IMG/VR virus record: IMGVR_UViG_3300032292_001093
Location: 20,936 to 84,935 of that record
Reading direction: 5' to 3' (one strand)
Length of the DNA: 64,000 nucleotides
DNA from: a virus
Lineage: Duplodnaviria; Caudoviricetes
Numbering within the stretch: position 1 is the first letter of the stretch; each line of letters begins with the position of its first letter. A model generated the notes under the pieces. The model had not been told where the DNA came from, did no database searches, and worked only from the letters and a program-made list of their open reading frames with translations. Shown here piece after piece: positions 12,742 through 64,000 of this stretch. Position numbers and translations under genes: made by a program.

Positions 12742-12759
12742 CATAAATGATTATAAAGT

Positions 12760-13365: not shown

Positions 13366-13374
13366 GTTTAAAAT

Positions 13375-13405: not shown

Positions 13406-13419
13406 ATTAATATTTAATA

Positions 13420-14703: not shown

Positions 14704-14783
14704 ATTTTAAAATATTTTTTTTTATATACTCTATATATTATAGATAAAAAGTCATTTTTTACCATTTTTAAATTTATTTATTA

Positions 14784-42252: not shown

Positions 42253-45200
42253 ATGTCAAATCATAAGAACTTATTATTTTTCAATAAAGAAGGGGATAAT
42301 TTAAATTTTAATTATAGTGATATAAATGATAGATTCGAAGGATCTATAATGTTTCATGAGAACTCAAACGATACGTTTAAAACTGCGGGTATTTATACAT
42401 TAGAAAAGATTCCATCTTTTGAGTTTGAAAAACCAGGTGAAATGTATTTGAGTAAATTTCAGTTATTCAATGAATTTGGATTTGACTTTTACGAGGGTAA
42501 ATATTTTACTCAATCCGTAACAAAGATTGAACCTATTAACAACGATCCTAACTTTTATTCAAAATGGATTTATGGTGAAAAGTTTGATATATTTTTTCCA
42601 ATTGGAACTATTATTAGATTCAATTCGTCATTTTTAGAATTCACTAATCCATTACAAACATATACCGTTGTATCTGTAAAAAAAGGAGCTATAATGATTA
42701 TAAGCTCTGTGGATAACGCCACATTTGAAGTTAACTATTATAATGAATACATATACAATGATACTTACTTAGGCAAATCTATATCAGCCATTAACGCAAT
42801 AGGTGTTTATAATTACATAGATGGTTCTTATAAAGATAATTTATCAGCTTGGAATGAACCAAGTTTTTATGATAAATTATACAAAAGAAAAAAACTTAAT
42901 ATTATAAATAGTGAGTTTAATAATAAAACGGTCACTGTTTTAGAAAAAGAAATAACAGATACTAGATTTTTTGAATACTACACTTCAAATATAGATAATA
43001 ATCAAGATTTGATTATAGAAGTTGCTTCAAAAACTGATTTACCTAAAATATATGAAGGTTCATTATCATTTGAATACACTGCTGGAACTTGGTCTACACC
43101 TGAAATCAATAAATTAGTTTTTGGTGGACTAGTACCGCAAGTTTTAAAGTCAGGTAGAGAATTTAAAGTAATTGGCTCTAATAATAATCAAAATTTCTTT
43201 ACAGTCGCTAGTATTCCAACATTTTACGGAAATAGTCAACAAACATTTTATGATGTTAAATCTCAGGTATTATTTAATAATAAAATATATGAGTGTATTC
43301 AAGCTTATACTCAAAGTTTTGCTTTAGAATCGACACAATTTATAACACCGACAAATGAGCCAACATATTGGACAGATATAATTTCTCATGTAAAAGTTGA
43401 CCAACAAATAACTCCGGAATTCTTATCAAGTTGTCAAGTTTATCTAACTACTGATAAACTTTATTTCTCACACGGCTATACACAAAGCTCGCAAGTGACT
43501 TTAGCATCTGCTGCTGAAAAATACGCAAGTGACTTAAAATCATTCAATGTTGAACTTTTTTACGAAAAAGGTCAATTGAAGGCTGATTTGATGTATCCAA
43601 GTAAATATGTAGAGGTAAATTACTATCAAGGATCAGTTGGTCCAACATATTCTATTGGTAATATTAAACAAACATATGAAAGACTAATTCAAGTATCAGA
43701 ACCATTAACAAAGGAATTAAATTATAACTTCTCATCAAATCATTCAGTTAATATAGTATTTACTGACTTAGATGAATATGGTTTTAAATTAATAGTAAAT
43801 AAACAAGTATTTGAAGAAGAAATAGCATGGGTTTATAGTGGTATCGGACCAGACATGGTAAGAACTATTGATAGAACTCTTAGAACTTGGTTAACAAGAA
43901 ATTATATCAATCTTCAAAAATTAGGAATAATAGCCGATTTACAATATATTGGATCATTTACTTCACCTTTTTACAACTCAATAAAATTACACACAGAATA
44001 TCCAAATGTTGAAATGTATGTAAATGATGTTAAAGTTGGAACAACTGCTAATTATTACATAGAACACTCAAAAGTTTTATTCAATGATATGGGTAGTTAC
44101 TTATCATTAGAAATCAATAGTGATACTTATGACCAAAGTACAATATATTTAACAGGAACTTATTCACAATATCCTAATATACCAGCTACATTACAAGCTT
44201 GGGTAGATGAACATGGATCATACTTAGCAAATTATGGAATATTAGTAACTAATATACACAATTTATTAAAATTTGATGTTAAAAAATTAGATAGAAGACT
44301 AGATTATACTATAACAACCGGTAAGAGTTCTCTACCAGGTATGAGTGATTATATAATTACTAAAAAAATTAAAGGAAATAATGGTGTAGTTATAACATCT
44401 AATGAAGTTAGACTACCAGATTCTGCTTCAGGTACTTATTCATTTGAAGATGCTGGTTTCGCAACCGGAATGGCATTTTCCATAAATAACACATTTCACA
44501 CTTGGAATAATACAGAGTTTAATGTTCAGTTTTTAGATCCAGAAGTTATGAATTTAAGTTACCAAGGACCATTCTGGGGCACTAAAGACCCCACTTGTAA
44601 CTCATCAGCTTTTATAACACTAGCATTTGAAATTGGATTTGGACAAACTGCTTGTGATCCAATTATTGGACCAACTGGAGGTTCAAGTGGCGGTCCATTT
44701 AATTTACAACAATTTAGTAGTGCGTTTAGTTTAGCCTATAATCCAAATGTTTACACAACGAATACATATAACCTACAACAATATAATGGTACTAATAATT
44801 TAGTTGATATATCTTATGTTCAATTATCTAACGCAATTTATGCTTTCGGAGATGAGGTTATAGTAATGGATGCGTTCTTAACAGATTACTTAACAAATAT
44901 TCCTTTACCAGGAAATACACAAAGTAAAAAAATGGAATTTAATCCAGTTAATAACTACTTATATTGTGTTTCTAATAAAATCATTTACGCTATTGACCCT
45001 TTAATAAACACAGTAGTTAAATCGATGACATTCTCAAATACATCATTGATTATTGATGATGTTAAATTTAACACATCAAATGGTGATATGTATATTTCTT
45101 TTATAAATTCACCAACAGTTGATATTTATAACTCAAGTAACAATTACTATACTACTTTATCAGGATCTACAACAAACTTCCCATCAGGTGCTGTATCAAC

Positions 45201-48174
45201 TGGAAAAATGGCTTTCAATGAATTTGAAGGCGATATGTATATTCAAACTTTTGGTACACTAGACCAAGTTATAAGAGTAAATACAAATAGAACTATACAA
45301 ACATCTTATGGTATATCAGGTTTAACGGGTTCTTTATTTTATGAACCGGTAAATGAGTCAGTTTATGCTTACGACGCATCAAATCTTTGGAAAATTGATA
45401 ATGGATTAACAGTTTCTATATCAGGCGTATCAGTGACTGGATTCTCAGATATTATATTTAATAATTTAACGGGTCAGATGGATTTATCAGACTCATCAAC
45501 AGCCTTCAGAGGAATTGATTTAACTACAAATAATGTAGGATTTACAACATATCTTGGTAATTATGGTCATTTAGCACTAAATCAATATGATGGAAGTGTT
45601 TACATGTCATCCAAAGGATCTAGTGCTATAGTGGTTATTAACCCAGTAGATGGAACATCTCTTAATATCAATCCAATGACTTCGATGACTGATAGAATAA
45701 TCTATAATCCTGAAAGAAAATCAATTTGGACTATACAACCAGGATTAAATTCTATAATAGAGGTTGAGGTTACACTTAATAGCACAATAACACCTGAAAT
45801 AGTACCATCGGTTCCTATATCAGAAGATAATAGATATGGTACATTAAATCCAGATTATGTACCACATGATAGTTTATGGTTAAAAACTAAAGAATATTTA
45901 AGAAAACCAAGAGAGAATTTTTCTCAAGAGGCAAGAGTCGAATACTATTGGAAATGGTATTCTGATGTATCACCAGAATTCTTTATTTATGACTTCTCAG
46001 GAACTCAGTTAACTAATTCAGGTAGTTATTCATACACAGGACCTAAACCTTTACCAACGGTTGTTTTAAATAAAAAGCCTAATAAAGATTTAACAAAATT
46101 AGATTCTCCGGAATATCAACAAACAATATTTGATGAGGTTTACTACCCATTAAGTTATATTGATGACGAAACAAATATATCAACAGCACCAGAACCTTTA
46201 GAATTATTCTTAGGATTTAGAGCTGATGATGAAGGAGCAATAAGATCGATATTACAGCTTTATAAAAAAGAAGATGTCTCTTTATCAATTAATTCAACAT
46301 CTACTAATAACACTTTTATAACTTTAGAAACTTTAGATCCAAATGGACCAGATAAAAGAGGTTTGATAAAATTAAATACAAACTCATCTGAATACTTTAC
46401 AGAAAAAGGTCTTAAAGAAGGACAACTAATAGCCGTTTACATAAAAGATAATATGAATAAAAAGAATCAGTATATCTCACATAATAATGGTTCAGTTTTT
46501 AAAATTAGGAGTGTATTTTATAAAACTCTTATTGTTGATTTCTTAGGAATAAATGATTATTTATTTACTGAAAGTACTTTAATTTCGAATTATCCAACTT
46601 CAGGAAATACAACGTATTGTAAATTTGATATTAACGTAATTGATAGAGAAATTGGAAGATTCATAACTTATGGTCAAACTGAGATTGAGGATATACGATT
46701 CAAAACAGAATTGGGCAATGTTGGTAAATTAATAGCACCAAATGAAGTATTTATTTTCAAAGACTATGATGTTTTAGAAGGTGGTATTGATTGGACTTAT
46801 CTTAATAAGAAGAGAAAAGAAATGTTAATGATGAAACACTTGATATATCCTTATATCGGTGCTTATAAATCAATTATTAATGCTATTAACTTTTTTGGTT
46901 ATAACGATTTACAATTAAATGAGTATTATAGAAATATAAATCCAGAGTCTGAAAAATTCTTAAAATTATTTAAGCAGGAAATACCTGATATATTTGATAA
47001 TACGGTTGAGGGTTGGACTGAAAGTGACTTCATTACAAATAACTTCCCTAATGATGATTATGAAGAAACTAGAATGTTTAACTTAACATATAACATAACT
47101 GATAAAGATGGAAATAATATCATTAATTATTCAATTGATGAGGTAATTATTAAATTACAAGGTCTTAAATACTGGTTAAAAAGAAATATTATACCTTTAA
47201 CTCATAAGATATTAGACATAACAGGTAGAGCTTATTTCAAAAATCAAACTGAAATAACACACACATCATATGATATTCAAATGATTAATATTAGACAAAA
47301 TATGACACCAATTTCATTCAAATTGAATGAAGTTTATCTTATGCCTATTAATAGTGGATCAACCGTATATAACTGTGTAATTGATTTCTATTCAATAGTA
47401 GATGGTGTTGGTGCTGATAAAAATCCAACAGGATTACTAACACCACCTAAACCATTTAATGGATCTAATCTTGATTTACCTGATTATTTTGATATAACAA
47501 TAAGAACTTATAAAACATATAAAGAATGGGCACCATTTACAACTTATAATACTGGTGATAAAATTTCATACTACGGTAAATTATACGAGTCACAAGTTGA
47601 CGGTAATAAAATTAAAAATCCGAAAAAGTATGAAAACTTAACAAGCTGGGTTTCGGGTGGTTCATATTCAGTAACTACCACGGTTGAATATAACAGAGAT
47701 GTTTTTGTTTATAGTGGATTAGGAACTATGTCATCTACTGCTAGTTCTATCATACCACCAATAAATGATAGTGACAATTGGTTAAAAATAACCGAATGGA
47801 AAGAAATAAATTATGAACCAGTACAAACTATTAAGGAGTTTAGAAAAATTAATAAACCAGATGATACAAGAGTTTACCCACAGATAGGTGGTAATTCAAA
47901 TCCAATGCCACCATCTAGCATTCCTATTGATTCAAATACGTTAGAAGTTTACTCACCGAAAGGCAATAATTCAAATCCAATATTACCTTTTAATTTTACA
48001 ATTGATTCTAATATAGATCCATTTATTGTGATTGAAGTTACCTCAGACAATGGTTATGGTTTAATTTATAGAGATAAAAAGAATTATGAAATAAGAGGTC
48101 TTAAAGATTTAACGGAACCAACTACTTATATTGATTTAATAGGTCCATTTCAACCAATAACTCCAATTTATTAA
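42253..48174 (+). CDS. Large baseplate/tail structural protein (wedge gp7/P2-I-like segment, beta-propeller and CBM5/12-like motifs)
   Basis: YIGAYKSIINAINFFGY; repeated (F/Y)NP.N..(L/M)Y blades; W....Y..GD.I.Y.GKLY motifs. Confidence 0.6.
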   Translation: MSNHKNLLFFNKEGDNLNFNYSDINDRFEGSIMFHENSNDTFKTAGIYTLEKIPSFEFEKPGEMYLSKFQLFNEFGFDFYEGKYFTQSVTKIEPINNDPNFYSKWIYGEKFDIFFPIGTIIRFNSSFLEFTNPLQTYTVVSVKKGAIMIISSVDNATFEVNYYNEYIYNDTYLGKSISAINAIGVYNYIDGSYKDNLSAWNEPSFYDKLYKRKKLNIINSEFNNKTVTVLEKEITDTRFFEYYTSNIDNNQDLIIEVASKTDLPKIYEGSLSFEYTAGTWSTPEINKLVFGGLVPQVLKSGREFKVIGSNNNQNFFTVASIPTFYGNSQQTFYDVKSQVLFNNKIYECIQAYTQSFALESTQFITPTNEPTYWTDIISHVKVDQQITPEFLSSCQVYLTTDKLYFSHGYTQSSQVTLASAAEKYASDLKSFNVELFYEKGQLKADLMYPSKYVEVNYYQGSVGPTYSIGNIKQTYERLIQVSEPLTKELNYNFSSNHSVNIVFTDLDEYGFKLIVNKQVFEEEIAWVYSGIGPDMVRTIDRTLRTWLTRNYINLQKLGIIADLQYIGSFTSPFYNSIKLHTEYPNVEMYVNDVKVGTTANYYIEHSKVLFNDMGSYLSLEINSDTYDQSTIYLTGTYSQYPNIPATLQAWVDEHGSYLANYGILVTNIHNLLKFDVKKLDRRLDYTITTGKSSLPGMSDYIITKKIKGNNGVVITSNEVRLPDSASGTYSFEDAGFATGMAFSINNTFHTWNNTEFNVQFLDPEVMNLSYQGPFWGTKDPTCNSSAFITLAFEIGFGQTACDPIIGPTGGSSGGPFNLQQFSSAFSLAYNPNVYTTNTYNLQQYNGTNNLVDISYVQLSNAIYAFGDEVIVMDAFLTDYLTNIPLPGNTQSKKMEFNPVNNYLYCVSNKIIYAIDPLINTVVKSMTFSNTSLIIDDVKFNTSNGDMYISFINSPTVDIYNSSNNYYTTLSGSTTNFPSGAVSTGKMAFNEFEGDMYIQTFGTLDQVIRVNTNRTIQTSYGISGLTGSLFYEPVNESVYAYDASNLWKIDNGLTVSISGVSVTGFSDIIFNNLTGQMDLSDSSTAFRGIDLTTNNVGFTTYLGNYGHLALNQYDGSVYMSSKGSSAIVVINPVDGTSLNINPMTSMTDRIIYNPERKSIWTIQPGLNSIIEVEVTLNSTITPEIVPSVPISEDNRYGTLNPDYVPHDSLWLKTKEYLRKPRENFSQEARVEYYWKWYSDVSPEFFIYDFSGTQLTNSGSYSYTGPKPLPTVVLNKKPNKDLTKLDSPEYQQTIFDEVYYPLSYIDDETNISTAPEPLELFLGFRADDEGAIRSILQLYKKEDVSLSINSTSTNNTFITLETLDPNGPDKRGLIKLNTNSSEYFTEKGLKEGQLIAVYIKDNMNKKNQYISHNNGSVFKIRSVFYKTLIVDFLGINDYLFTESTLISNYPTSGNTTYCKFDINVIDREIGRFITYGQTEIEDIRFKTELGNVGKLIAPNEVFIFKDYDVLEGGIDWTYLNKKRKEMLMMKHLIYPYIGAYKSIINAINFFGYNDLQLNEYYRNINPESEKFLKLFKQEIPDIFDNTVEGWTESDFITNNFPNDDYEETRMFNLTYNITDKDGNNIINYSIDEVIIKLQGLKYWLKRNIIPLTHKILDITGRAYFKNQTEITHTSYDIQMINIRQNMTPISFKLNEVYLMPINSGSTVYNCVIDFYSIVDGVGADKNPTGLLTPPKPFNGSNLDLPDYFDITIRTYKTYKEWAPFTTYNTGDKISYYGKLYESQVDGNKIKNPKKYENLTSWVSGGSYSVTTTVEYNRDVFVYSGLGTMSSTASSIIPPINDSDNWLKITEWKEINYEPVQTIKEFRKINKPDDTRVYPQIGGNSNPMPPSSIPIDSNTLEVYSPKGNNSNPILPFNFTIDSNIDPFIVIEVTSDNGYGLIYRDKKNYEIRGLKDLTEPTTYIDLIGPFQPITPIY

Positions 48175-49886: not shown

Positions 49887-52800
49887 TTAACCATCACCCT
49901 TACTTCCCATGTCAGCATTTGTTTCTTTTGGATTATGTAAGTATAAGTTAATTCCCTGAGCCTCATCTTTAATTGTTTTCAATAATAAAATAACTTTATC
50001 TAGTTTTTGTAATTGTGTTTCACCTTTAGCATCTTTATGATAAGATTCATCTGTTTTTTTACTTTGAACACCGGTAGCACCAGCGCCTGCCTTTACGGCT
50101 GGTCTTTTGCCTAATTCAGCAGTTTGTATTTGTAACATATTAGCAAATACACCACTTCTACTTTCTAATACTTTTAACATATTACTAAACATAGTAGAAT
50201 CCATAGCAGATAACATTGCTAAGTTACCAGTCAATACTCTAAATTCATGTAATTTACCAACATTTAAACCATTAATAGCTCCACTAAAATTCTTAACAGC
50301 TTTAGCCAAAGTATCATAAGCATTAGCAATCTTAACCATACCTTTAGCAACTCTAGAAATAGGATCTAATCCTAACATCTCATCAAGAACGGATTGACCT
50401 TTTTGTTTTTTAGAAAGATTATTTGCTAATTCAGCAAATGTCATAACATTTGATGCTATACTCTTCATATAATTTGGATCTATTTTAAATCCAAATAATC
50501 CTTTATTCTTATGAAGAATACGAGCAGTAACAACCAATTGATTTACAACTTTATTAATAATTCCAACATCAGCGGCTCTAGTAGTTTCAATAGAATACTT
50601 ACCAAACGGACCAAGACTCATAGTTTTAACCTCGTTAATAGTAAGAATTTTTTCAAGTATTCTAGTTAATTTAGCATAATTTTCTAAATTCCAGTGTAGA
50701 TTATAAACCCAATTCGTATCTAATTTAAAATCTTTGAAAAACTTTTGATTACTCCATAATATTCTAGCAGTATCAACCATTTGACTAACAATTCTATTAA
50801 TAATAGAAACATCTTTCATTTTTCTAACTGTTGTAGTTGTAGTTGATTGACCAAATCCTAAGAAACCTCCTTGTTTTAGTGTTGCTTTTTCATCATAGCC
50901 TAGTATTTTATCAAGTTGACTGGTTAATGCGGCATAAGGCAAAACATTTTTAGACAAATTAAATACCCATTTAGGGTCTAACATAAACTTGAAATATTTT
51001 TGACTATCAAAAAGCATTCTAGCAGAAGAAGATATATTAGATATAGCACTTCTTAAAATCATAGAATTTATTGTAAATCTAGCCATTGTAAGACCCTTAT
51101 CTTCTATTGCTTGGAAGATATCCATAAATCCAACAACTGTTGATTTCACACCACTGGCCCATTGTTCACTTGGATAAGAACCCCAAATATCACCAGCCTT
51201 AAAGAAAGCAAGACCAGAAGAAACTAAAGCAGCAGTAATATATTTAATACCTTTTAGCATATTACCAATAACCTCATCACCTGAAGTAAACCAACCAGTA
51301 TCTTCACTAAGTGCCTTAAATACAGGAGCAAAGGCATTTAATGCCGCGCCCACACCTTTACCCCAATTTTCAGAAGGATAACCTTCATCAAAGGTAGCTT
51401 TATTTGCGGCAAATATATTAGCAGAATCAATAATACCTCTTGAAATAGTTATAATAGCCGCGCTCATTTTTTGACCACCACTGAACGGGAAATCTTCCAA
51501 CATTTTATAAACAGGAGCAAAAGCACCAATTGCTAAACCTACTCCTTGAGACCATTCTTTAGATGGACCATTGATAAAGGCGGCTTTATTATTAGCAAAG
51601 AAACCAGCAGCATCAACTATACCACGAGATACTGTTTTAATAGCTGTGGCAAAATCATCTGGACCAACTCCACCACCTCCAAATAATGAAAGTATAGAGT
51701 TAGCCATCATCATAGCATAAACAGGAGCAAAAGCGCCCAAAGCTAAAGCTATACCACCTGCCCAAGCCAAAGTAGGACCACCGGTATATTTACCTTTTTC
51801 TAAAATAAGAGATGCTTGTACAATTGTATCAGCAACAGTTAAAACAGCCTCAGCACCAGCGGCTAACATAAGACCACCAATTCCAAATGTACCTATAATA
51901 AGAGCACCTAAGACCACCATACCAGCAGTAAATGCCGCCATAGAAATAGCAACAGAAGCTGACCAAGATAAAGGTGGATAATTACCATACTTACCAGCAG
52001 CAAGTATATAAGAGGAAGCAGTAATAGTAGCAGCAACTATAAGAACCATACCGGCACCAGCCAATATAGCAAGAGCACCAAATCCAGACATGGCGATAGC
52101 TCCTAATAGTACAATAGCTGGTGTAAATGCGATTAATGAAAGACCTACACCTAATGCCCATTTCCAATCTGGATATTTCTTATAATTACCCAAGGCTAAA
52201 ATATGTGAAGAAACCATCACAGCAACCGCAATAACAACTATTAAAAGTGTGCCTATGAGAGCGTCTTTGATACCAACTTTCATTTTATTGAATAAAGCCA
52301 TAACACCACCAATCGCAGCAGCAACAACGGCAAGAGCAACACCATATAATACTAACTTAAATAGTGTAGCGGCTGGTATAGTCTTAGCCATTGATAAGAT
52401 ATAAGAAGATGCTGTTATAGCAATAGCCACTAAAACCATAAATACAGGTATTTTAGGAACATCACTCCATTTCATTGTACTGATACCATTAACTATTTGT
52501 TTTATACCATAAGAAATAACAACAAATACAGCAGCAACACCAACAGCAGTTAGGAATTGAGAAAAACTAATTGGTTTTATTTTACCTAAAGCTACTGATG
52601 AATAAGCAATAGCGTAAGAAACAGCAACTAAAACAATTGGTAACATAAGAGCACCAACTATCATAGTAGCTGGACTTAAACCCTCAAACGATTTTAATAA
52701 TTTTCTAATACCAAAGGCAATTACGGCAAAAACAATGGCAATACCAACAGCTGTTAAGAATTGAACAAATCCAATTGGTTTAATCAATTGGAAAGCATAT

Positions 52801-53747
52801 GAAGCACCAGCAATACCTAGAGCAATTGCGGGTAGTATTAGAGGTAAGAAAATAACCGCTTGTAATAAATCTTTTGGATTTAAACCATCAAAAGACTTTA
52901 ATAACTTTCTAATACCAAATGAGATAATAGCAAATACAATACCTATACCAACAGCTGTTAAGAATTGAGAAAATCCAATTGGTTTAATCAATTGGAAAGC
53001 CCAAGAGGCAAAGGCTATACCTAAGGCAATAGCCGGTAAAATAATAGCAAATCCAACAACAGATTTAATTAACTGACCCCAAGACATTTCCTTAAATGCC
53101 ATCAAGAACTTATAAATTGATGGCCCTAGCATCGCAAATGTCAAAGCAATAAATGTAGCCGTAAAGAATTTACTAAATGATAATGGCGTAACCATTGATA
53201 ATATCATTGAAGAGAGTGTTATACCAATAGATATAGAGGTTATTGCTATTATAAAGTTAACAGCATCGACTTTAGGATTAAATCCAGCTTCTTTTAATAT
53301 CTTATGTATTTTAGCAAAGCCAATAGCTAATAAAGGCAAGGCTATAGATAAAGCTATAACTGAAAAGAAATTAACTTTACCAATTAAAAGAAAAGCGGCA
53401 CCAATTGCCAAAACAGCCACAGCTATAAGTAAAATAACACCTAGACCTTCTTTGAAATTCTTTTGAGCTGTTTTATCTTTACCTAAACCTTCAGCAACAT
53501 TTTCTTTTTTACCACTTTTACTCTTAGCCATATTCATAATGGTTTGCTGATTAGCTAAGATTTGTTTAGTATCTTTTTGTAAAGCTTTTACACCTACATT
53601 GATTTCTTTAATTTCTTTAACAAAATCACCACCTTTCATGGCTTTTGCGGTAGCAGACTGTGCCTCACTCTTATCTTTAAGAGCGGCAGCAATGTCTTCT
53701 AGTGCTAAAGACAAATTACTTAAACTATCTAGTAACTTCTTATCCAT
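49887..53747 (-). CDS. Tape-measure-like protein with many hydrophobic repeats
   Basis: 1286 aa, Ala/Gly/Ile-rich helical repeats (FQLIKPIGFSQFLTAVG.. and YP..W..GVG.A..AF); late box upstream. Confidence 0.65.
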   Translation of the reverse strand: MDKKLLDSLSNLSLALEDIAAALKDKSEAQSATAKAMKGGDFVKEIKEINVGVKALQKDTKQILANQQTIMNMAKSKSGKKENVAEGLGKDKTAQKNFKEGLGVILLIAVAVLAIGAAFLLIGKVNFFSVIALSIALPLLAIGFAKIHKILKEAGFNPKVDAVNFIIAITSISIGITLSSMILSMVTPLSFSKFFTATFIALTFAMLGPSIYKFLMAFKEMSWGQLIKSVVGFAIILPAIALGIAFASWAFQLIKPIGFSQFLTAVGIGIVFAIISFGIRKLLKSFDGLNPKDLLQAVIFLPLILPAIALGIAGASYAFQLIKPIGFVQFLTAVGIAIVFAVIAFGIRKLLKSFEGLSPATMIVGALMLPIVLVAVSYAIAYSSVALGKIKPISFSQFLTAVGVAAVFVVISYGIKQIVNGISTMKWSDVPKIPVFMVLVAIAITASSYILSMAKTIPAATLFKLVLYGVALAVVAAAIGGVMALFNKMKVGIKDALIGTLLIVVIAVAVMVSSHILALGNYKKYPDWKWALGVGLSLIAFTPAIVLLGAIAMSGFGALAILAGAGMVLIVAATITASSYILAAGKYGNYPPLSWSASVAISMAAFTAGMVVLGALIIGTFGIGGLMLAAGAEAVLTVADTIVQASLILEKGKYTGGPTLAWAGGIALALGAFAPVYAMMMANSILSLFGGGGVGPDDFATAIKTVSRGIVDAAGFFANNKAAFINGPSKEWSQGVGLAIGAFAPVYKMLEDFPFSGGQKMSAAIITISRGIIDSANIFAANKATFDEGYPSENWGKGVGAALNAFAPVFKALSEDTGWFTSGDEVIGNMLKGIKYITAALVSSGLAFFKAGDIWGSYPSEQWASGVKSTVVGFMDIFQAIEDKGLTMARFTINSMILRSAISNISSSARMLFDSQKYFKFMLDPKWVFNLSKNVLPYAALTSQLDKILGYDEKATLKQGGFLGFGQSTTTTTVRKMKDVSIINRIVSQMVDTARILWSNQKFFKDFKLDTNWVYNLHWNLENYAKLTRILEKILTINEVKTMSLGPFGKYSIETTRAADVGIINKVVNQLVVTARILHKNKGLFGFKIDPNYMKSIASNVMTFAELANNLSKKQKGQSVLDEMLGLDPISRVAKGMVKIANAYDTLAKAVKNFSGAINGLNVGKLHEFRVLTGNLAMLSAMDSTMFSNMLKVLESRSGVFANMLQIQTAELGKRPAVKAGAGATGVQSKKTDESYHKDAKGETQLQKLDKVILLLKTIKDEAQGINLYLHNPKETNADMGSKGDG

Positions 53748-57415: not shown

Positions 57416-58180
57416 TTATTTAAATTGATTATCGTAAACTTTTCTCTTTAGTTCCATTATTTTACCAACGTAACCATTTCTTCTTAGCAACTTAAAAACT
57501 AAGTTACCTACTGAATACTCACCACTCTCAGATTCTAAACCACTTTGTCTATAATCTTTTATCTTTTTCCAAACTTTAGATATTTTTTCATCAAAAGCTT
57601 CATATTTATCTTCTTCTGATTCTTCTTCAATATCATCAACCGACATCATAATAGTTTTAGCTTTTTCAGATATAAGTTTTTCATCTGGTTCAAAATCTGC
57701 TCTTTCAGGTCTTTTAATCCATCTATTATTTAATAGTGAAAAAACACCGCCCATTCTACCACCTTCAATAGCTTTATCTAAATCATCATTATCTTGAATA
57801 GCTATTTCAACTTCGTAGTTTTTAATTTTGATATCGTGTTGAGCATTCCAAACTTTCTTAGCATAATCGCACGCCTTTTCAACTAATTCAAAATTATCAT
57901 CAATATCATCAAAGTCAATGATAACGTGTAAATCATAATCTGAATATTTTTCAGACCAATTATAATTACACAAAGAACCAGTAAGAACGATATCAACAAC
58001 ATCAGAAGATAATTCAACTTTTTCATAAAAGTCTTGAGCAATTTGTAATAATTGTTCTCTAACTTCATCTTCTAATTTAAAATCATCCCATAGCTTAGGA
58101 TTCAATTCATCTTTAAGATAAAAAGACTTAATAGGTTCTAAATCTTGTTGATTGAATTCAAAATATTTTACAAGTTTCAT
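57416..58180 (-). CDS. Pol-beta-superfamily nucleotidyltransferase
   Basis: LTGSLCNYNW...SDYDLH, third acid in VEIAIQD; start revised to ATG 58180 (MKLVKYFEF) just after AATATATA. Confidence 0.8.
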   Translation of the reverse strand: MKLVKYFEFNQQDLEPIKSFYLKDELNPKLWDDFKLEDEVREQLLQIAQDFYEKVELSSDVVDIVLTGSLCNYNWSEKYSDYDLHVIIDFDDIDDNFELVEKACDYAKKVWNAQHDIKIKNYEVEIAIQDNDDLDKAIEGGRMGGVFSLLNNRWIKRPERADFEPDEKLISEKAKTIMMSVDDIEEESEEDKYEAFDEKISKVWKKIKDYRQSGLESESGEYSVGNLVFKLLRRNGYVGKIMELKRKVYDNQFK

Positions 58181-58277
58181 ACTGTATATATTAAATTCTA
58201 TAGGCACTTTTTAATTATTCATTATATAACTTTATTGTAATTTTTAATATAATCTGTAAGAAAAAATATAAATAATT

Positions 58278-60461
58278 ATGTCGGAAAAAATAAAGATACT
58301 TTTTTTAGCACCTCATTTATCAACAGGAGGAATGCCATCATTTCTATTAAGAAGAATAAAAGCTCTGATGAATAACGAAAACTTTGAACTGTTTGTTGTC
58401 GAATATGCTGATATTGGAGGATGGGCATATGTTGTTCAAAAAAATGAAATCAAAAAAATAATCAAGCCGGAAAATTTCTTTACCCTATATGAAGATAAGT
58501 CATTATTAATGAATATTATCAAAGATAATAATATAGATATAGTACATGCTGATGAGATTTTAGAAGCTTTTGAACATTCAAATAGAATACCAGATTCTAT
58601 GTTTAATGACTTATATAACAATAACAGAACTTGGAAAATAGTAGAAACTTGTCATAATGTTTGGTTTAATCCAAATACATCTAAAAGATATAATCCTGAT
58701 GGATATGCTTTTTGTACACCATGGCATAAATTTAAAACCTTCTCGGAAATGCCATCATATGCTGAAGTTCTACCTTTTCCAATAGAAAATAAAGTACCTA
58801 CATATTTAGAAAAACTAGAAGCTAAAGCTTTATTAGGAATGGATCCTAATAAAAAACATATTATTAACGTAGGTTTATGGACATCTGGTAAAAATCAAAA
58901 AGAAGGAGTTGAAGTAGCAAAGTCTTTAGAAGAATCTAATCCAGAAATTCAATTTCATTTTATTGGAAATCAAGCACCAAATTTTGAAGAATATTGGGGA
59001 CCAATAATGAGTGACCTACCATCAAATGTAACTGTATGGGATGAGAGATCTGATGTTGAAAATTTCATGAAAGCCGCAGATTTATTTATGTTTAACTCAA
59101 CTTGGGAGTGTAATCCGTTAGTTCTAAGAGAAGCCGCTTCTTTTGGACTAAAAATATTGTCAAGAAATCTTGAACAATATATGGATATGTTTACACCATA
59201 CATAACAGAAATAGATGGAGATATAACATCAACTAAATATAAAATAATCTCACTTCTTTCTTCTGAAAATAAATATGTAGTAGAAGATGAGTCTGAATCA
59301 TTTGAGAATAACTACTCTAATTTCTATAAAAAAATTCACAGAATGCCAGTAATGGAACAATCTGTATTTACTCCCAAACCTGAGATTATTCAAAATTTTA
59401 TTTTGAATCCTTTTTTAGAAATAAAAGGAGTGAGTGAGAGTAAATTCAAGATTGAATTTTATGATGAAGAAGGAAGATGTCACTATTCAGAAAACTTATC
59501 AATAAACCACTGGGTTAAGTTAAATAGAGAATATTTCACGAAATGGAATACCAAAATTTGGGAAGATGGATATTTAATACATGATTATACCTTAGATTTA
59601 AAAGGTAAAAGAGTTTATATCTGTTTAGATAGTAGTTCTTTAGGTGATACTTTATCTTGGGTTCCTTATATTAGAGAATTCAAAGATAAACATCAATGTC
59701 ACTTAATTGTTTCTACTTTTATGAATTATTTATTTAAAGATTCTTACCCAGATATTGAATTTATAGAACCAGGAATGGTAGCAAACAATATTTATGCTAT
59801 GTATAAAATAGGTTGGTTTTATAAAGATGATAAATTTGATGTATCTAAAAATCCAAATGATTTTAGAAAAGAGCCTTTACAAAAAACAGCCTCTGATATT
59901 TTAGGATTAGATTATAAAGAAACTAGACCATTATTAAATATTCCAAAAGTGGAAAAGAAAAAGAAAGTAGGAATTGGTTTACACTCAACTTGTCAAGCAA
60001 AATATTGGAACAATCCAACTGGTTGGCAAGAAGTCGTTGATTATTTAACATCTTTAGGATATGAAGTTGTTCTTTATTCAAAGGAAAATGATGGTTATAT
60101 GGGTAATTTTCATCCAAAAGGTATAACTAAATTTGAAGCAGGTTCTATTGAAAGATTAATCGAAGATATGGCTTCTTGTGAATTCTTTGTTGGCTTAGGA
60201 TCTGGTTTAAGTTGGTTAGCTTGGGCGTGTGAACTACCAGTTGTCTTAATTTCTGGATTTAGTGAAGAATATAGCGAAACAACATTAGATACTTACCGTG
60301 TTATAAATAAGAATGTTTGTACCGGATGTTTCAATAGATACAGATTAAATGCCAGTGATTGGAATTGGTGTCCAGATCATCAAAATACAGAAAGACAATT
60401 TGAGTGTACTAAAAGTATTACCTCAAAAATGGTGATTGACAAAATCAATCAAGTTTTATAA
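58278..60461 (+). CDS. GT4-like glycosyltransferase fused to Aah/TibC-type (autotransporter) protein O-heptosyltransferase
   Basis: N-half HLSTGGMP, KNQ, ADLFMFNS.WE..PLVLREA; C-half SLGDTLSW, STCQAKYWNNPTGW, FVGLGSGLSWLAW, VVLISGFS, C.GC.N...WCP.H...FECTK. Confidence 0.85.
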   Translation: MSEKIKILFLAPHLSTGGMPSFLLRRIKALMNNENFELFVVEYADIGGWAYVVQKNEIKKIIKPENFFTLYEDKSLLMNIIKDNNIDIVHADEILEAFEHSNRIPDSMFNDLYNNNRTWKIVETCHNVWFNPNTSKRYNPDGYAFCTPWHKFKTFSEMPSYAEVLPFPIENKVPTYLEKLEAKALLGMDPNKKHIINVGLWTSGKNQKEGVEVAKSLEESNPEIQFHFIGNQAPNFEEYWGPIMSDLPSNVTVWDERSDVENFMKAADLFMFNSTWECNPLVLREAASFGLKILSRNLEQYMDMFTPYITEIDGDITSTKYKIISLLSSENKYVVEDESESFENNYSNFYKKIHRMPVMEQSVFTPKPEIIQNFILNPFLEIKGVSESKFKIEFYDEEGRCHYSENLSINHWVKLNREYFTKWNTKIWEDGYLIHDYTLDLKGKRVYICLDSSSLGDTLSWVPYIREFKDKHQCHLIVSTFMNYLFKDSYPDIEFIEPGMVANNIYAMYKIGWFYKDDKFDVSKNPNDFRKEPLQKTASDILGLDYKETRPLLNIPKVEKKKKVGIGLHSTCQAKYWNNPTGWQEVVDYLTSLGYEVVLYSKENDGYMGNFHPKGITKFEAGSIERLIEDMASCEFFVGLGSGLSWLAWACELPVVLISGFSEEYSETTLDTYRVINKNVCTGCFNRYRLNASDWNWCPDHQNTERQFECTKSITSKMVIDKINQVL

Positions 60462-60857
60462 ATGGATAAACCTATAAAAGTTTGGGTTAATGGAACTTTT
60501 GATGTTTTACACATAGGTCATATAAAACTATTAGAATTTGCCAGTCAGTTTGGTGAAGTAAGAGTTGGTATTGATACTGATGAAAGAGTAAAACAATTAA
60601 AAGGTGAATTGAGACCTATAAATAATATTAAAGATAGAATTGATTTTATGAATTCTATTAAATATGTAAATAGTTCGGTTGATTTTTCAACAGAAGAAGA
60701 ACTTTGCGATAGAATAAAAGAGTGGAATACTGATATTATAATAATTGGTGATGATTATAAAGATAAAAGAGTAATAGGTTCTAACTTAGTAAAAGAGATT
60801 ATATTCTTTGATAAAATAGATGGTCACTCATCAACAAAAATTATAGAAAGTAAATGA
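60462..60857 (+). CDS. Heptose-1-phosphate adenylyltransferase (HldE/RfaE domain II, HldC-like)
   Basis: NGTFDVLHIGH, VGIDTD..VK.LKG..RPIN...R, GDDY, SSTKII. Confidence 0.8.
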   Translation: MDKPIKVWVNGTFDVLHIGHIKLLEFASQFGEVRVGIDTDERVKQLKGELRPINNIKDRIDFMNSIKYVNSSVDFSTEEELCDRIKEWNTDIIIIGDDYKDKRVIGSNLVKEIIFFDKIDGHSSTKIIESK

Positions 60858-61588
60858 TTAAGATTTTAGTAATAGGAGAAAAATGTACAGATAGATTTAT
60901 GTATTGTGATGTTTCTAGATTTAGTCCAGAAGCACCAGTACCTGTTCTAAACCCTATTGAAATAGTTGAAAATGATGGAATGGCTGGTAATGTTGTTAGA
61001 AACTTAAAAGCTATGAATAATGATGTTTTAATAGAACATTGGTATCAAGATGAAATTATTACTAAAACTAGATTTGTAGAAAAGAAAAGTAATCATATGT
61101 TTTTAAGATTAGATGAAGGTGAATCAAATATATCTAAACTAAATCTTAAATTAAATCTATTATCTGAATATAGTATAGTGATTGTAAGTGATTATGATAA
61201 AGGATTTATTAACAATGAGGATTTATTAAAAATAGGTAAAAACTCAAAAATATCTATATTAGATTCAAAAAGAAAACTAAGTAAAGAAATTATAAGCAGT
61301 TTTTCATTTGTAAAATTAAATGAAAAAGAATCTTTACAAAACTCTGAGTTATTAGAGTGTAATAATATCTTAATAACTTTAGGTAGTAAAGGAACTAAAT
61401 TTAATGGTAAAATATATCCTAGTCCAAATCCACAAGAAACTATTGATGTTAGTGGAGCAGGTGATACATTCACCGCTTCTTTTATACTAAAGTATATAGA
61501 AAGCGGTGATATTAAATCATCTATTATTTTTGCCAATAAAATGTCTTCAATAGTTGTTTCAAAGAGAGGCGTAGCAATACCTAATTAA
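60854..61588 (+). CDS. Heptose-7-phosphate kinase (HldE/RfaE domain I, HldA-like, PfkB fold)
   Basis: RFSPEAPVPV, GMAGNV..NL, KTRF, SDYDKG, DVSGAGDTF. Confidence 0.85.
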   Translation: MIKILVIGEKCTDRFMYCDVSRFSPEAPVPVLNPIEIVENDGMAGNVVRNLKAMNNDVLIEHWYQDEIITKTRFVEKKSNHMFLRLDEGESNISKLNLKLNLLSEYSIVIVSDYDKGFINNEDLLKIGKNSKISILDSKRKLSKEIISSFSFVKLNEKESLQNSELLECNNILITLGSKGTKFNGKIYPSPNPQETIDVSGAGDTFTASFILKYIESGDIKSSIIFANKMSSIVVSKRGVAIPN

Positions 61589-63999
61589 GCTTGTTCTATA
61601 TAATTCATTATAGAACTAGCAGCATTATTACCATATAACGATACAGCAAAGTTACCCAACGTATCAATAAATACAGGAGTACCGACACCACCGGAATATC
61701 CAATTATTTGATTATCTGATATAGAACTTCCAAGACAATCTAGATTATTACCTAGTGGGTAGAATGTTAACTCAAGCCACATATGCCATGTTAAAGTATT
61801 ACTACTAGCTGAGTAAATTTGTTGATTTGGCGCATAAAAAACATTATTAGACCAAGACATCCACCAGTGTGATTTATTATTGTAGCAGTTTGTTATAATA
61901 TGTCCGCTATTACCAGCAACACCACCACTACTACCAGCAGTATCTCCGAAGAAATAATCATTACCGGTGACAATAAACTTAGAATTGTGTAAAAGAACTC
62001 TTTGTTGATCCGATACGTTTCTATAGTTATTTAAAACCCAGTTTGGATAAGCATATACTGTTGGTCCAGATCCAAAATTAGTCATCCATGTAGTATTAGT
62101 AAAATACCAATTAGTAAGTGGTTCTATTGCTTGGCCTGGATTACTACCTGGAACATAACCATTGGTAGCATAAAAGTTCACAGAATCACGAGCAGTAAAT
62201 TTACAATTATCAATTTCAAAATCCATCTGACCATGTCTACCAAATACTATATTACAGCCAGAATATCCGTTACTTCCGTGAGCATCGTTTGTATTCTCAA
62301 AATTAATATTATGTAGTTTAATAGCAATCTCATCACCGGCACCATTATCAGTACCACCAAGTGATGTACTACCATCACCTATATATAACTGAGGTGAAGG
62401 TTTTCCAGATATCTGATTATGACTGGTAACTATTTTAGCGCCACCAAAGGGTCCAGTAAAAGCACCCAAATAACCTTTTGAAGGAGCATCTCCTATAATA
62501 CTAAACCAACCTGGTTGATACATTCTTATAGAACCATCAGCAGCGGCCATGTTTGATGGGAAATTAATTGTACAACCACCATTTAATTTAATAGTTGTTC
62601 CTTCAAGATTACCAGTTCCAGTTGTACTTGATTTAAACACCCAAGGTCCTATTTCAGAGTAACGACCAGGAAATACCCAAATGGTGTATTCAGCTTGATC
62701 ATTTGTCATTAACCATTCTAGAGCTTTTGATACATGAGCAAATGGCACATCTATTCTACCACCGGTGCCAACTAATGCTGCTGCCGCAGCATCGACATCA
62801 TTTCCATTTTGATCCACAAATAAAGTTCGAAGATAAGGTGTACCACCAGATATAGTAACATTAACACCAGTTCCACTATTCGAAGCAGTAACACCAGCAC
62901 CTACAAAATTTAAGAAAGTTGCGGTAGTTGTTAAAGAGACACCCTCATCTTGTATAGTAATAGCAGAACCACCACCACTAATACCAGAAGATCCACTTGA
63001 ACCACTTGATCCAGATGATCCGCTTGATCCAGAAGATCCACTTGAACCACTTGATCCAGATGATCCTGAAGATCCACTTGATCCAGAAGATCCATTTAAT
63101 CCATCAGCGACCCAAGATATAGTATAAAAACTACCATTAGTGATAGATCCATTTTGAGCTAAAGGTGGAGAATTAAGTTGATAGCTATAATATGTGCTTA
63201 TAGAAGTAACAGATGTTATAGTCCAAATACCCAATATGCTAGTATTTCCTATCTCATATATTTGTAAATAAGCTGTTCTACCAGCAGCAACTATTGAACT
63301 AACAGCTTGATGCCAAGTAGCGTAAGCACCACCAAGTGATGTATTCTCAATATTAATATTTGTTATAGCATTTATAACAACAGCATTTGTTGTAAATCCA
63401 GCTGTAACAGGAGCACCACCAGCAACACCACCATTTCTCCATCTACCACTGTTTGAACCATCATTACCAGCAGCACCGGCGGCACCTGATGTACCGGATG
63501 AGCCTGATGAACCACTTGATCCTGAAGTTCCTGATGAACCACGAGTACCTGAAGAACCACTTGATCCACTTGATCCCGATGAGCCACTTGATCCTGAACT
63601 CCCACTTGATCCTGATGTACCTGAAGATCCATTAGCACCTGATGTACCAGATGAGCCTGATGAACCACTTGATCCGGATGAACCACTTGATCCGGATGAA
63701 CCACTTGATCCGGATGAACCTGAAGTACCGGCAGATCCTGAAGATCCACTTGATCCTGAAGAGCCACTTGATCCTGAACTACCTGAAGAGCCACTTGATC
63801 CTGATGTTCCTGATGATCCACGAGTACCTGATGATCCACTTGATCCTGAACTACCCGATGATCCACTTGATCCTGATGATCCTGAAGTACCAGCAGAGCC
63901 TGATGATCCACTTGATCCTGATGAGCCTGATGAGCCACTTGATCCAGAAGAACCACTTGTTCCGCTTGATCCATTAGCACCTGAAGTACCTGATGAGCC
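61585..63999 (-). CDS. Fibre-like protein with Gly-Ser-Ser collagen-type repeats and C-terminal beta-helix-like domain; 5' end outside window
   Basis: Frame of ORF 61585..63234 stays open to the window end (manually translated); IQDEG...LNFVGAGV fibre motif; FVD.NG.D...G....PF / IWVFPGRYSE pectin-lyase-like start. Confidence 0.8.
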   Translation of the reverse strand, partial: GSSGTSGANGSSGTSGSSGSSGSSGSSGSSGSSGSAGTSGSSGSSGSSGSSGSSGSSGTRGSSGTSGSSGSSGSSGSSGSSGSSGSSGSAGTSGSSGSSGSSGSSGSSGSSGSSGSSGTSGANGSSGTSGSSGSSGSSGSSGSSGSSGSSGTRGSSGTSGSSGSSGSSGTSGAAGAAGNDGSNSGRWRNGGVAGGAPVTAGFTTNAVVINAITNINIENTSLGGAYATWHQAVSSIVAAGRTAYLQIYEIGNTSILGIWTITSVTSISTYYSYQLNSPPLAQNGSITNGSFYTISWVADGLNGSSGSSGSSGSSGSSGSSGSSGSSGSSGSSGSSGSSGISGGGSAITIQDEGVSLTTTATFLNFVGAGVTASNSGTGVNVTISGGTPYLRTLFVDQNGNDVDAAAAALVGTGGRIDVPFAHVSKALEWLMTNDQAEYTIWVFPGRYSEIGPWVFKSSTTGTGNLEGTTIKLNGGCTINFPSNMAAADGSIRMYQPGWFSIIGDAPSKGYLGAFTGPFGGAKIVTSHNQISGKPSPQLYIGDGSTSLGGTDNGAGDEIAIKLHNINFENTNDAHGSNGYSGCNIVFGRHGQMDFEIDNCKFTARDSVNFYATNGYVPGSNPGQAIEPLTNWYFTNTTWMTNFGSGPTVYAYPNWVLNNYRNVSDQQRVLLHNSKFIVTGNDYFFGDTAGSSGGVAGNSGHIITNCYNNKSHWWMSWSNNVFYAPNQQIYSASSNTLTWHMWLELTFYPLGNNLDCLGSSISDNQIIGYSGGVGTPVFIDTLGNFAVSLYGNNAASSIMNYIEQA
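62985..63095 (-). repeat. (GSS)n coding repeat, ~12 triplets
   Basis: GSSGSSGSS... with varied codons. Confidence 0.95.
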
Positions 64000-64000
64000 A
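63470..64000 (-). repeat. Long G-X-Y coding repeat (GSS/GTS/GSA/GAN/GTR), ~175 codons, continues past window
   Basis: Gly at every third residue, X/Y mostly Ser/Thr. Confidence 0.95.

Follow-up and report, generated by a model that had tools for sequence, protein, structure and literature searches.

A phage gene cluster that may O-heptosylate the collagen-like fibre encoded beside it

We found that a phage contig encodes what is likely a module for protein O-heptosylation, with the collagen-like fibre of the same phage as its acceptor. We put the probability of this reading at roughly 60%. The DNA analysed is a stretch of 64,000 nucleotides (the window), positions 20,936 to 84,935 of the linear, 84,935-bp virus record IMGVR_UViG_3300032292_001093 (Caudoviricetes). 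Near its end, three genes on the same strand encode a two-domain glycosyltransferase (GT) of the bacterial autotransporter heptosyltransferase (BAHT) type, the family of TibC and AAH, and two small proteins that resemble the two domains of HldE, which makes ADP-heptose. They converge on a gene for a fibre with long Gly-[Ser/Thr]-Ser repeats (Table 1). The family, modelled fold and catalytic residues of the enzyme, the arrangement of the genes, and the genomic coupling of the enzyme's clade to this type of repeat are established. We infer the acceptor from gene association, and likewise the sugar, the modified site and any effects on helix stability, shielding or adsorption.

The GT is a true member of the TibC/Aah family, judged by its profile score, its fold and its catalytic residues. 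The curated family model TIGR04414 (hepto_Aah_TibC) matched residues 386-726 with 296.7 bits (cut-off 200) over model positions 25-374 of 374, and phmmer aligned the protein with TibC at E 9e-64. We modelled the GT with AlphaFold2 (AF2) from 17 homologues (pLDDT confidence score 85.5). The top Foldseek matches to this model were the TibC structures 4rap and 4rb4 (target template-modelling (TM) score 0.81-0.83, 35% identity, 372-376 columns), and the TibC-type fold (N-terminal beta-barrel, GT-B catalytic domain, beta-hairpin thumb and iron-finger) appeared to be recovered in the prediction. PF00534 (GT1/GT4) matched residues 186-332 (E 2e-12), and the GT4 half of the model resembles BshA, PimB', MshA and WaaG (TM ~0.68). 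There was also a weak match to PF01075.

The functional residues of TibC are described as the base Asp-110, the ligand-binding Thr-226, Lys-230, Trp-305 and Arg-286, and the iron-binding Cys-339, Cys-342, Cys-358 and Cys-370 (PMC4358343). Residues D457, T571, K575 and W646 of the GT align with D110, T226, K230 and W305 of TibC and are invariant in the 17 homologues. The same is true of C681, C684, C698 and C710, putative iron ligands that align with C339, C342, C358 and C370. In the GT4 domain E277 is invariant and E285 nearly invariant, a pair that we take to be the EX7E motif of GT4 enzymes. The position that governs stereoselectivity (Pro-300 in TibC, Ser-294 in AAH; D,D- versus L,D-heptose preference) is an invariant Gly in the GT homologues. 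An earlier note on this DNA, made from the letters alone, had proposed a GT4 domain fused to a TibC/Aah-type heptosyltransferase with a Cys-rich C-terminus. The profile score, TibC as best structural match, and the aligned catalytic and cysteine residues bear that out.

Just upstream of the GT we noted two further features. A T4-late-promoter-like TATAAATA lies 4 bases 5' of the start codon; the window has 19 such motifs and 17.95 are expected, so nothing can be concluded from it. Transcribed divergently from the GT is a 263-aa open reading frame (ORF) at 57416-58207 on the minus strand (phrog_36119, E 1e-34). In 9 of 44 enzyme clusters, distant ones (L012, L048) among them, this ORF is again a neighbour of the GT. 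It had no match in Pfam and none at E <= 1 in the Protein Data Bank (PDB). On visual inspection, its Gly-Ser ... Asp-x-Asp pattern resembles that of nucleotidyltransferases.

The fibre gene and the kinase gene converge with a 4-base overlap. The encoded part of the fibre (PF01391, E 7e-28) has 76 G-X-Y triplets (61 + 15) and no Pro inside the repeats; the earlier note, which had described a three-gene run converging on a Ser/Thr-rich fibre of about 70 triplets, had the layout and coordinates right. In the long block X is Ser in 45 of 61 triplets and Thr in 11 of 61, and Y is Ser in 51 of 61. That is, the usual helix stabilisers are missing: there is no Pro, there are few charged residues, and X and Y are nearly all Ser or Thr. 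No other run of five or more G-X-Y triplets occurs in the 85-kb contig. The fibre's PHROG 'tail fiber' matches rest on the collagen repeats.

Outside the repeats the fibre has two other parts. The ~105-aa domain between the collagen blocks is kept, at 29-60% identity, in GT-adjacent collagen ORFs of other loci (L003, L006 (twice), L008, L012, L017 (twice), L047 and L049), and is a possible trimerisation or nucleation domain. The C-terminal head (~415 residues) is probably a right-handed parallel beta-helix: as a lead, its ESM Atlas model (pLDDT 0.51) aligned to Beta_helix, DUF1565 and pectate-lyase-like clusters with TM by query of 0.55-0.61. A protein search with residues 350-804 gave 3 weak matches among 8000 candidates scored, and BLAST found no homologue of the head in 80 enzyme loci, close relatives included.

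A full-length homologue of the fibre is present in a related record (L524:1818-10643). It has 2941 aa and 825 triplets, 634 of them in one uninterrupted run, and Y is Ser in 818 of the 825. Its C-terminus is a chaperone of endosialidase domain (PF13884, E 1e-15), which we take to be typical of trimeric phage fibres. The collagen triple helix rises 0.286 nm per residue, and a fibre of this type would be ~0.7 micrometre long if triple-helical. Gly-X-Ser repeats break assemblies: among the contigs that stop within them are the window, a 476-kb relative and several more. On both strands of window positions 63372-63980, other frames hold ORFs of 60-208 aa that are by-products of the repeat and not genes, and similar by-products probably mislead gene callers elsewhere too. 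Because wrong-strand annotation is easy and assemblies are broken in the repeats, such fibre genes are probably under-counted.

We found that relatives of the GT tend to be encoded beside such fibres. Altogether 304 viral contigs encoded a relative, and we used the best 80 of these enzyme loci (44-81% identity), which formed 44 clusters at 90% identity. A Ser/Thr-rich collagen ORF (at least 20 triplets, Ser+Thr at least 0.6 of X/Y) was within 10 kb of the enzyme in 25 of the 44 clusters, and a collagen ORF of any kind in 30. As a control from the same phage lineage we looked at terminase loci. None of 80 (1.09 Mb) had a collagen ORF, compared to 49 of the 80 enzyme loci (1.45 Mb). When whole records were scanned for 40 of the 44 clusters, the repeat pattern was present in 24 of the 40 cluster representatives (including three T4-like records with repeats more than 10 kb from the enzyme) and in 5 of the 7 that were at least 90% complete. 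A GT4 homologue was within 10 kb of the enzyme in 31 of 44 clusters and fused to it in 17; the earlier note had suggested that the GT4 domain may add a second sugar. Methyltransferase domains of several kinds are also often fused to the phage GTs. The conserved GT4 and methyltransferase partners suggest a glycan that is built in more than one step.

The association was also found in the other direction, from fibre to enzyme. We scanned viral contigs with a degenerate DNA pattern for eight consecutive Gly-[S/T-type]-[S/T-type] codon triplets and, among the matches listed, searched one locus per distinct record for TIGR04414 (E <= 1e-5). Three batches gave matches in 12 of 44, 16 of 48 and 5 of 16 records, for a total of 33 of 108 (118 had been selected). 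A scan for generic collagens gave 118 records, with Ser+Thr below 0.4 in 88, 0.4-0.6 in 21 and above 0.6 in 9; the enzyme was found in 0 of 80, 0 of 19 and 1 of 5 of these classes, respectively. The difference between 33/108 and 0/99 is highly significant (Fisher p = 3e-11), as is that among records at least 50% complete (10/24 vs 0/42, p = 9e-6), with the proviso that these counts are of records, not dereplicated genomes, and that Fisher statistics ignore shared ancestry. The co-occurrence of this GT with Gly-Ser-Ser genes, which the earlier note had proposed as a test, was evident in both scans.

The signal extends beyond one sampled lineage, since the 33 enzymes compared (32 of the 33, leaving out the partial G009, plus the one from a generic collagen record high in Ser/Thr) were all separate at 90% identity (33 clusters) and fell into 25 clusters at 60%. 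Only one duplicated an enzyme of the forward set. The distance from the enzyme to a listed repeat locus was at most 10 kb in 19 of 34 records and at most 17 kb in 28 of the 34, on contigs of up to 548 kb. Repeat composition alone did not predict the enzyme: enzyme-positive and enzyme-negative repeat records were alike in Ser and Thr at Y (Mann-Whitney p 0.87 and 0.78).

The position of Ser in the triplet is informative. In 25 enzyme-linked fibres Y was on average Ser in 0.80 of triplets and Thr in 0.03, and X was Thr in 0.44 and Ser in 0.41. In all 33 enzyme-positive records of the reverse scan, Y was Ser in 0.59-1.0 of triplets. The value for generic viral collagens was 0.04. Hydroxyproline occupies the Y position in collagens, and this position is reportedly helix-stabilising and is said to carry glycosylated Thr in a vent-worm collagen. 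TibC and AAH are described as modifying Ser and not Thr, and synthetic peptides are substrates of TibC (PMC4358343). The motif would therefore fit a Ser-specific transferase acting at a helix-stabilising position. There is a parallel in a (Gly-Pro-Thr)10 peptide, which is described as triple-helical only when its Thr is glycosylated (PMC11923368).

Bacterial relatives of the enzyme point to the same acceptor. We scanned one genome per prokaryotic species and found 29 enzyme loci. In trees of 71 and 104 sequences (quick IQ-TREE, LG+G4), 14 bacterial autotransporter-type rows were split with SH-aLRT support of 100 from 78 phage rows and 12 others. The 14-row clade includes Escherichia, Citrobacter, Saezia, Oxalobacter, Desulfovibrio and Elusimicrobium. 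In 4 of 8 of its loci that we examined, the gene next to the enzyme encodes an AIDA-type autotransporter, and none of the eight loci has Ser/Thr repeats. BAHT genes are described as preceding the gene for their substrate (PMC4358343), a rule that this clade reproduces.

The phage-side clade includes enzymes from complete Methylomicrobium and Methylobacter chromosomes and from related metagenome-assembled genomes. There, the enzyme gene is beside genes for small (Gly-Thr-Ser)n proteins, which by eye have signal-peptide-like N-termini followed by the repeats. Pfam Collagen matched the ORF adjoining the enzyme in 4 of 6 such loci examined. Loci of this type contain housekeeping genes (mfd, queA, smpB), an extracytoplasmic function (ECF) sigma factor, a subtilase and Gcw_chp, and no prophage genes. 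It is possible that these pairs are a bacterial system for heptosylated surface or periplasmic proteins. We regard them as the strongest independent support for the repeat as acceptor, because the repeat is all that they share with the phage fibres.

The family is larger than these sets. A scan of 1.84 billion representative proteins gave 768 clusters at E <= 1e-30, and the best 150 of the 768 (clustered at 50% identity) all scored above 300 bits against the phage enzyme, compared to 219 for TibC. Most are long multidomain proteins.

One member belongs to an isolated phage, Microcystis phage Mel-JY01 (L486, PP395634.1). Its enzyme is a 1227-aa GT4 + methyltransferase + TibC-like protein (TIGR04414, 317 bits) that is annotated 'methyltransferase FkbM'. 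Directly upstream on the same strand (1-3052, +), an ORF that spans at least 1016 aa has Gly-[Ser/Thr]-Ser repeats and, at its C-terminus, a domain without them; this ORF runs into an annotated 'hypothetical protein' (2519-3052). The annotation instead has antisense Pro/Val/Glu-rich 'hypothetical proteins' at 1-651 and 739-2298, probably due to mis-annotation of the strand. At 9152-9986 there are smaller Gly-X-Ser ORFs that also seem to be frameshifted or wrongly called.

Table 1. Features of the putative heptosylation module and of the bacterial partner genes. Coordinates are those of the window, except for the L-numbered bacterial loci.
Feature	Coordinates	Strand	Basis or context
GT4 + TibC/Aah-type fusion (BAHT, GT9-like C-terminus), 727 aa	58278..60461	+	profiles, AF2 model, Foldseek
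GT4 domain (retaining GT-B), residues 1-333; candidate second sugar transferase	58278..59276	+	PF00534
TibC-like domain, ~residues 360-727: predicted beta-barrel, GT-B core, four-Cys iron-finger	59355..60461	+	TIGR04414, alignment
Nucleotidyltransferase, 131 aa, most like HldE domain II (heptose-1-phosphate adenylyltransferase)	60462..60857	+	PF01467, TIGR02199
PfkB-type sugar kinase, 244 aa, most like HldE domain I / HldA (heptose-7-phosphate kinase)	60854..61588	+	TIGR02198, PDB
Collagen-like fibre gene, C-terminal 804 aa, 5' end lost at contig end	61585..64000	-	PF01391, PHROG
Collagen block 1: 61 uninterrupted G-X-Y triplets, mostly Gly-Ser-Ser / Gly-Thr-Ser	63451..63999	-	triplet count
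~105-aa non-collagen domain between blocks	63100..63414	-	conserved in relatives
Collagen block 2: 15 triplets	62968..63102	-	triplet count
C-terminal head, residues ~389-804, probable right-handed parallel beta-helix (tailspike-like)	61588..62835	-	ESM Atlas model
Small (Gly-Thr-Ser)n proteins	L472:11217-11927, L466:7240-8229, L463:8920-9780, L462:8746-9753		Methylococcales and related bacteria, beside TibC-like gene

The two small genes of the run most resemble the halves of HldE, which is what the earlier note had proposed them to be. The best NCBIfam match of the kinase was rfaE_dom_I (TIGR02198; 118 bits, cut-off 345), with ribokinase at 42 bits. It also matched phrog_8133 (E 3e-71), and its best match in the PDB was D-beta-D-heptose 7-phosphate kinase 4e84 (E 5e-13; ribokinase E 1e-6). 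The protein is shorter than the 315-position TIGR02198 model and contains a Gly-Ala-Gly-Asp stretch, presumably the nucleotide-binding motif of PfkB kinases. The 131-aa protein matched PF01467 (E 3e-15) and phrog_7878 (E 1e-34). Its best NCBIfam match was rfaE_dom_II (TIGR02199; 87 bits, cut-off 181.5), followed by glycerol-3-phosphate cytidylyltransferase (58.8 bits), and its PDB matches were cytidylyltransferase-fold enzymes only. Because both proteins score under the curated cut-offs, the HldE assignment is the best available and not proven. Bifunctional HldE is one polypeptide with the kinase N-terminal and the adenylyltransferase C-terminal. In contrast, the phage has two separate genes that overlap by 4 bases, and the adenylyltransferase gene comes first.

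The donor pathway encoded by the phage is partial. We found no match to gmhA (TIGR00441) or gmhB (TIGR00213) at E <= 1 in the 85-kb contig or at E <= 0.01 in five related records, four of which are 93-97% complete. Two of the four steps are thus encoded, and the other two would have to come from the host. The earlier note had likewise seen no GmhA or GmhB in the window; its claim that the phage makes its own donor is too strong. This gene content also agrees with a commentary on viral heptose pathways that lack the phosphatase (PMC11461863).

Other genes accompany the run in relatives. A 129-aa cupin ORF (PF07883, E 3.5e-6; L022:11181-11567) is also present in L003, L004, L005, L006, L008 and L010. 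In close relatives of the window phage it comes after the GT and before the adjacent downstream gene; where an adenylyltransferase gene is detected (L003, L005, L006 and L022), that gene is the one that follows. The cupin ORF is absent from the window, where the GT ends at 60461 and the following gene begins at 60462. The cupin could be a sugar isomerase or epimerase. In a T4-like group (L060-L082), the genes for the GT4, the TibC-like enzyme, the adenylyltransferase and the kinase precede one for a ~1400-aa protein (L060:12230-16483 and relatives). This protein contains DUF5661 along with a second cytidylyltransferase-like domain that is weakly similar to nicotinamide mononucleotide (NMN) adenylyltransferase.

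The module would probably work as follows. The 244-aa and 131-aa enzymes would carry out steps 2 and 4 of the HldE pathway, and the host would supply GmhA and GmhB. In the cytoplasm, the TibC-like domain would transfer heptose to the hydroxyl groups of Ser, most probably of the Ser at Y, within the Gly-[Ser/Thr]-Ser repeats. The fused GT4 domain would add a second sugar, either onto the heptose or onto Ser or Thr at X, and the fused methyltransferase domains of other phages would modify the glycan in further steps. This would yield a stalk that has no Pro and is densely covered in glycans, with 818 candidate Y-position serines per chain in the full-length relative. A demand of this size would explain why a phage boosts the supply of donor. 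Triple-helix stabilisation, shielding and receptor effects are speculation; stabilisation has a precedent (PMC11923368).

Several points weigh against this reading. The entire case is made from sequence, predicted structure and gene association. PF21129, the model of the TibC N-terminal barrel, was undetected in the window GT and is weak or absent in its clade. TibC Arg-286 aligns one position off R626, which is not invariant, and has no unambiguous counterpart. In addition to the low scores of both HldE-like proteins, a kinase homologue was within 10 kb of the enzyme in 15 of the 44 clusters and an adenylyltransferase homologue in 12. Known BAHT acceptors are beta-helices, and the window fibre also has a probable beta-helix head. 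The enzyme is not required for such repeats, since no TibC-like match was obtained in 75 of the 108 records with repeats, among them 7 of the 13 that are at least 90% complete. Conversely, 16 of the 40 enzyme-bearing records had no match to the repeat. These are mostly fragments, but 2 of the 7 near-complete records are among them. In one (G005), the enzyme is ~2 kb from the contig end, and a member of the same 90% cluster (L014) has an adjacent 586-triplet fibre. The other (G240) has a Gln/Thr-rich collagen instead. Co-inheritance of a fibre module could produce the association, and not all cases are independent, because the ~105-aa domain is common to fibres of several lineages. The counting of records in the reverse scan belongs here too.

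It is possible that the enzyme and substrate are as we propose and that the Gly-X-Ser array is an extended, mucin-like, hyperglycosylated spacer, its three-residue period being that of a repeated sequon. We think this unlikely, but it deserves to be taken seriously. The repeats are Pro-free with few charges, and Pro or salt bridges are the usual stabilisers of a collagen helix (PMC11923368). The short bacterial (Gly-Thr-Ser)n runs, directly after signal-peptide-like N-termini, look linker-like. A spacer does not sit well, however, with the 634 triplets of the full-length relative in which Gly recurs every three residues without interruption, with conserved non-collagen domains after the collagen blocks, or with the trimeric-fibre chaperone domain that ends one relative. 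The (Gly-Pro-Thr)10 peptide that is helical only if its Thr is glycosylated (PMC11923368) also argues for a helix, and the title of Mann et al. 1996 gives Y as a position that stabilises the helix.

A distinctly less probable alternative is that the enzyme heptosylates some other phage protein, for example the beta-helix head of the fibre or other virion proteins, and that the repeats co-travel in the fibre module. TibC binds and modifies a beta-helix (PMC4358343), known BAHTs act on beta-helical passengers, and the C-terminal 415 residues of the window fibre are probably a right-handed beta-helix. Yet this head is the part of the fibre that had no BLAST homologue in the 80 loci, and a close relative ends in the chaperone-of-endosialidase domain. 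It is the Gly-X-Ser repeat that is common to phages with enzymes only 34-65% identical to that of the window, and to bacterial partners that have no head.

The kinase, adenylyltransferase and GT might instead be auxiliary metabolic genes that alter the lipopolysaccharide (LPS) core or another envelope glycan of the host, for example to block superinfection, with the fibre a mere neighbour. HldE belongs to the LPS-core heptose pathway and the GT9 family includes LPS heptosyltransferases, consistent with the weak PF01075 match. The rfaE and glycosyltransferase genes beside tail-fibre genes of pelagimyophages were read as O-chain modification (PMC7029224), and a heptosyltransferase of a huge phage was called an LPS gene (PMC10747093). 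For the window GT we consider this very unlikely. Its best model is a protein-O-heptosyltransferase equivalog, matched above cut-off; LPS heptosyltransferase I was not among its NCBIfam matches and scored 31.5 bits on the Mel-JY01 homologue; and the full TibC fold, barrel and iron-finger included, is predicted by the model. LPS modification predicts neither the coupling to one repeat composition (33/108 vs 0/99) nor the chromosomal pairing with (Gly-Thr-Ser)n proteins.

We give equally little credence to a donor other than ADP-heptose, that is, to the small genes making some other nucleotide sugar or other heptose nucleotide that the GT then transfers. Such a donor is suggested by the scores of both proteins under the HldE-domain cut-offs, the cytidylyltransferase relatives of the 131-aa protein, and the invariant Gly at the TibC Pro-300 / AAH Ser-294 site. 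Some heptose nucleotidyltransferases also yield CDP- and UDP-heptose (PMC11461863, PMC11573728). Nevertheless, the rfaE domain models were best for both genes, by far so for the kinase, a heptose 7-phosphate kinase is the best match to the kinase among solved structures, and the Thr, Lys and Trp with which TibC binds heptose and phosphate are invariant in the GT homologues. A role in DNA glycosylation was dropped, as the enzyme is a protein-O-heptosyltransferase equivalog with no link to DNA-modification genes.

The proposed heptosylation module resembles the BAHT systems (TibC and AAH with TibA and AIDA-I) in its curated profile, fold, catalytic residues and iron-finger Cys, in the encoding of the presumed acceptor beside the enzyme, in that acceptor being a long periodic Ser-rich rod, and in its probable donor, ADP-heptose. 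In contrast to those systems, the enzyme is phage-encoded and GT4-fused, belongs to a separate clade (SH-aLRT 100) and has a divergent N-terminal barrel that PF21129 does not match. A ring-shaped dodecamer is a further trait of BAHTs. There is no autotransporter in the 85-kb contig; the neighbour of the enzyme is a Gly-X-Ser collagen-like fibre.

Glycosylated collagen-like proteins are known from other settings. O-linked oligosaccharides are reportedly attached to the part of BclA, of the Bacillus exosporium, that is collagen-like (Daubenspeck et al. 2004). The BclA sugars are rhamnose and anthrose, the acceptor is Thr, the particle is a bacterial spore and not a virion, and other enzymes are used, with no BAHT among them. 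The likeness lies in a Pro-poor or Thr-rich collagen-like surface filament with sugars on hydroxyls of the repeat (PMC11923368). Mimivirus also encodes both collagen-like proteins and an enzyme that glycosylates them (L230 acting on L71; PMC9614988). Unlike the phage module, it is a system of a eukaryotic giant virus that puts glucose on hydroxylysine with an enzyme of an unrelated family, with no donor-synthesis genes taking part in this step. Mycobacteriophages use glycosyltransferases to decorate their own structural proteins (Freeman et al. 2023; PMC12619734). These glycosyltransferases are unrelated and act on C-termini of capsid and tail-tube proteins, and the accessible portion of that source does not describe heptose, a collagen-like acceptor or donor genes.

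The viral nucleoside diphosphate (NDP)-heptose enzymes of Tang et al. (Science 2024) are similar in that a functional kinase and nucleotidyltransferase occur with no phosphatase (PMC11461863, PMC11573728). They may already include these very phage genes. Those papers leave open the role of heptose nucleotides in viruses, and that of virus-encoded heptose-nucleotide synthesis is stated as unsolved (PMC11573728). Here, in contrast, the genes are in an apparent operon with a protein heptosyltransferase beside a candidate acceptor.

We found no description of a pairing of heptosyltransferase, phage and collagen-like protein in the searchable open literature (subscription papers and supplements were outside its scope), and the words collagen, heptos-, glycosyl- and fibre are absent from the main text of Al-Shayeb et al. 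2020 (PMC7162821). BAHTs and their autotransporters, viral heptose-nucleotide enzymes, glycosylated collagens of spores and mimivirus, and virion glycosylation in mycobacteriophages are known already. What we rate as new is the acceptor class and the biological setting, the enzyme family itself being known, and this claim is a genomic one.

The phage that the window comes from seems to be large. The window is the last 64 kb of a record that is 14% complete (CheckV), and its G+C is ~29%. It encodes head, protease, portal, terminase, sheath, tube and clamp loader proteins and a late sigma factor-like protein. Relatives of the terminase (76-99% identity) include the 476-kb record mentioned above (97% complete) and one of 436 kb (95%). 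Based on this gene content and the sizes of these relatives, the source is a very large myovirus, and the window is a fragment of it. A megablast search with positions 58278-63999 against 50,697 phage records gave no match.

We noted several other genes in the window and upstream of it. In the structural region near the fibre, a 1286-aa protein (49887-53747, minus strand) has an N-terminal half made of a long series of hydrophobic repeat-like segments and had no family match, and the sole match of a 1973-aa protein (42253-48171, plus strand) was a weak one to CBM_5_12. A glutamine synthetase-like gene (11647-12741, plus strand; PF00120, E 7e-16, and PF03951) lies amid structural and replication genes. 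Upstream of the window, ~70 kb from the heptosylation genes, are genes for a 682-aa protein with a GT2 domain (G000:C1 7569-9614; L001) and a 254-aa GT2 / GT7C-like protein (G000:C1 10411-11172; L001). A 70-aa ORF in the same upstream region (G000:C1 13938-14150, within 12671-15505; L001) matches the T4 Gp23 major capsid model (E 2.5e-11) and is flanked by unannotated ORFs of 418 and 451 aa. There is a separate gene for a 571-aa major head protein at window positions 467-2182, and the short ORF could be a second or broken capsid gene.

A wider proposal, which we hold only tentatively and at somewhat less than even odds, is that the TibC/Aah family has a large branch, so far undescribed, that acts specifically on collagen-like Gly-[Ser/Thr]-Ser repeats. 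Heptosyl-Ser at Y would replace hydroxyproline or glycosyl-Thr and allow Pro-free helices of up to ~0.7 micrometre. This would be the reason that viruses make heptose nucleotides, and in methanotrophs the same chemistry would act on the small secreted (Gly-Thr-Ser)n proteins.

Phage glycosyltransferases and rfaE/hldE genes beside fibre genes are currently read as modifiers of host LPS (PMC7029224, PMC10747093). If heptosylation of the fibre is true, then a widespread gene set would move from host manipulation to virion building, and virion building would be a likely reason for heptose-nucleotide synthesis by viruses. The reading is directly testable, because the isolated Microcystis phage Mel-JY01 carries the same pair. 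It would also give a family that is known only from the adhesins of pathogens a new class of acceptor, and add a third chemical solution to stabilisation of the collagen helix. One would then expect many large aquatic phages to bear very long fibres coated with sugar, which would matter for adsorption, host range and the stability of the particle, and for how grazers or immune systems recognise it.

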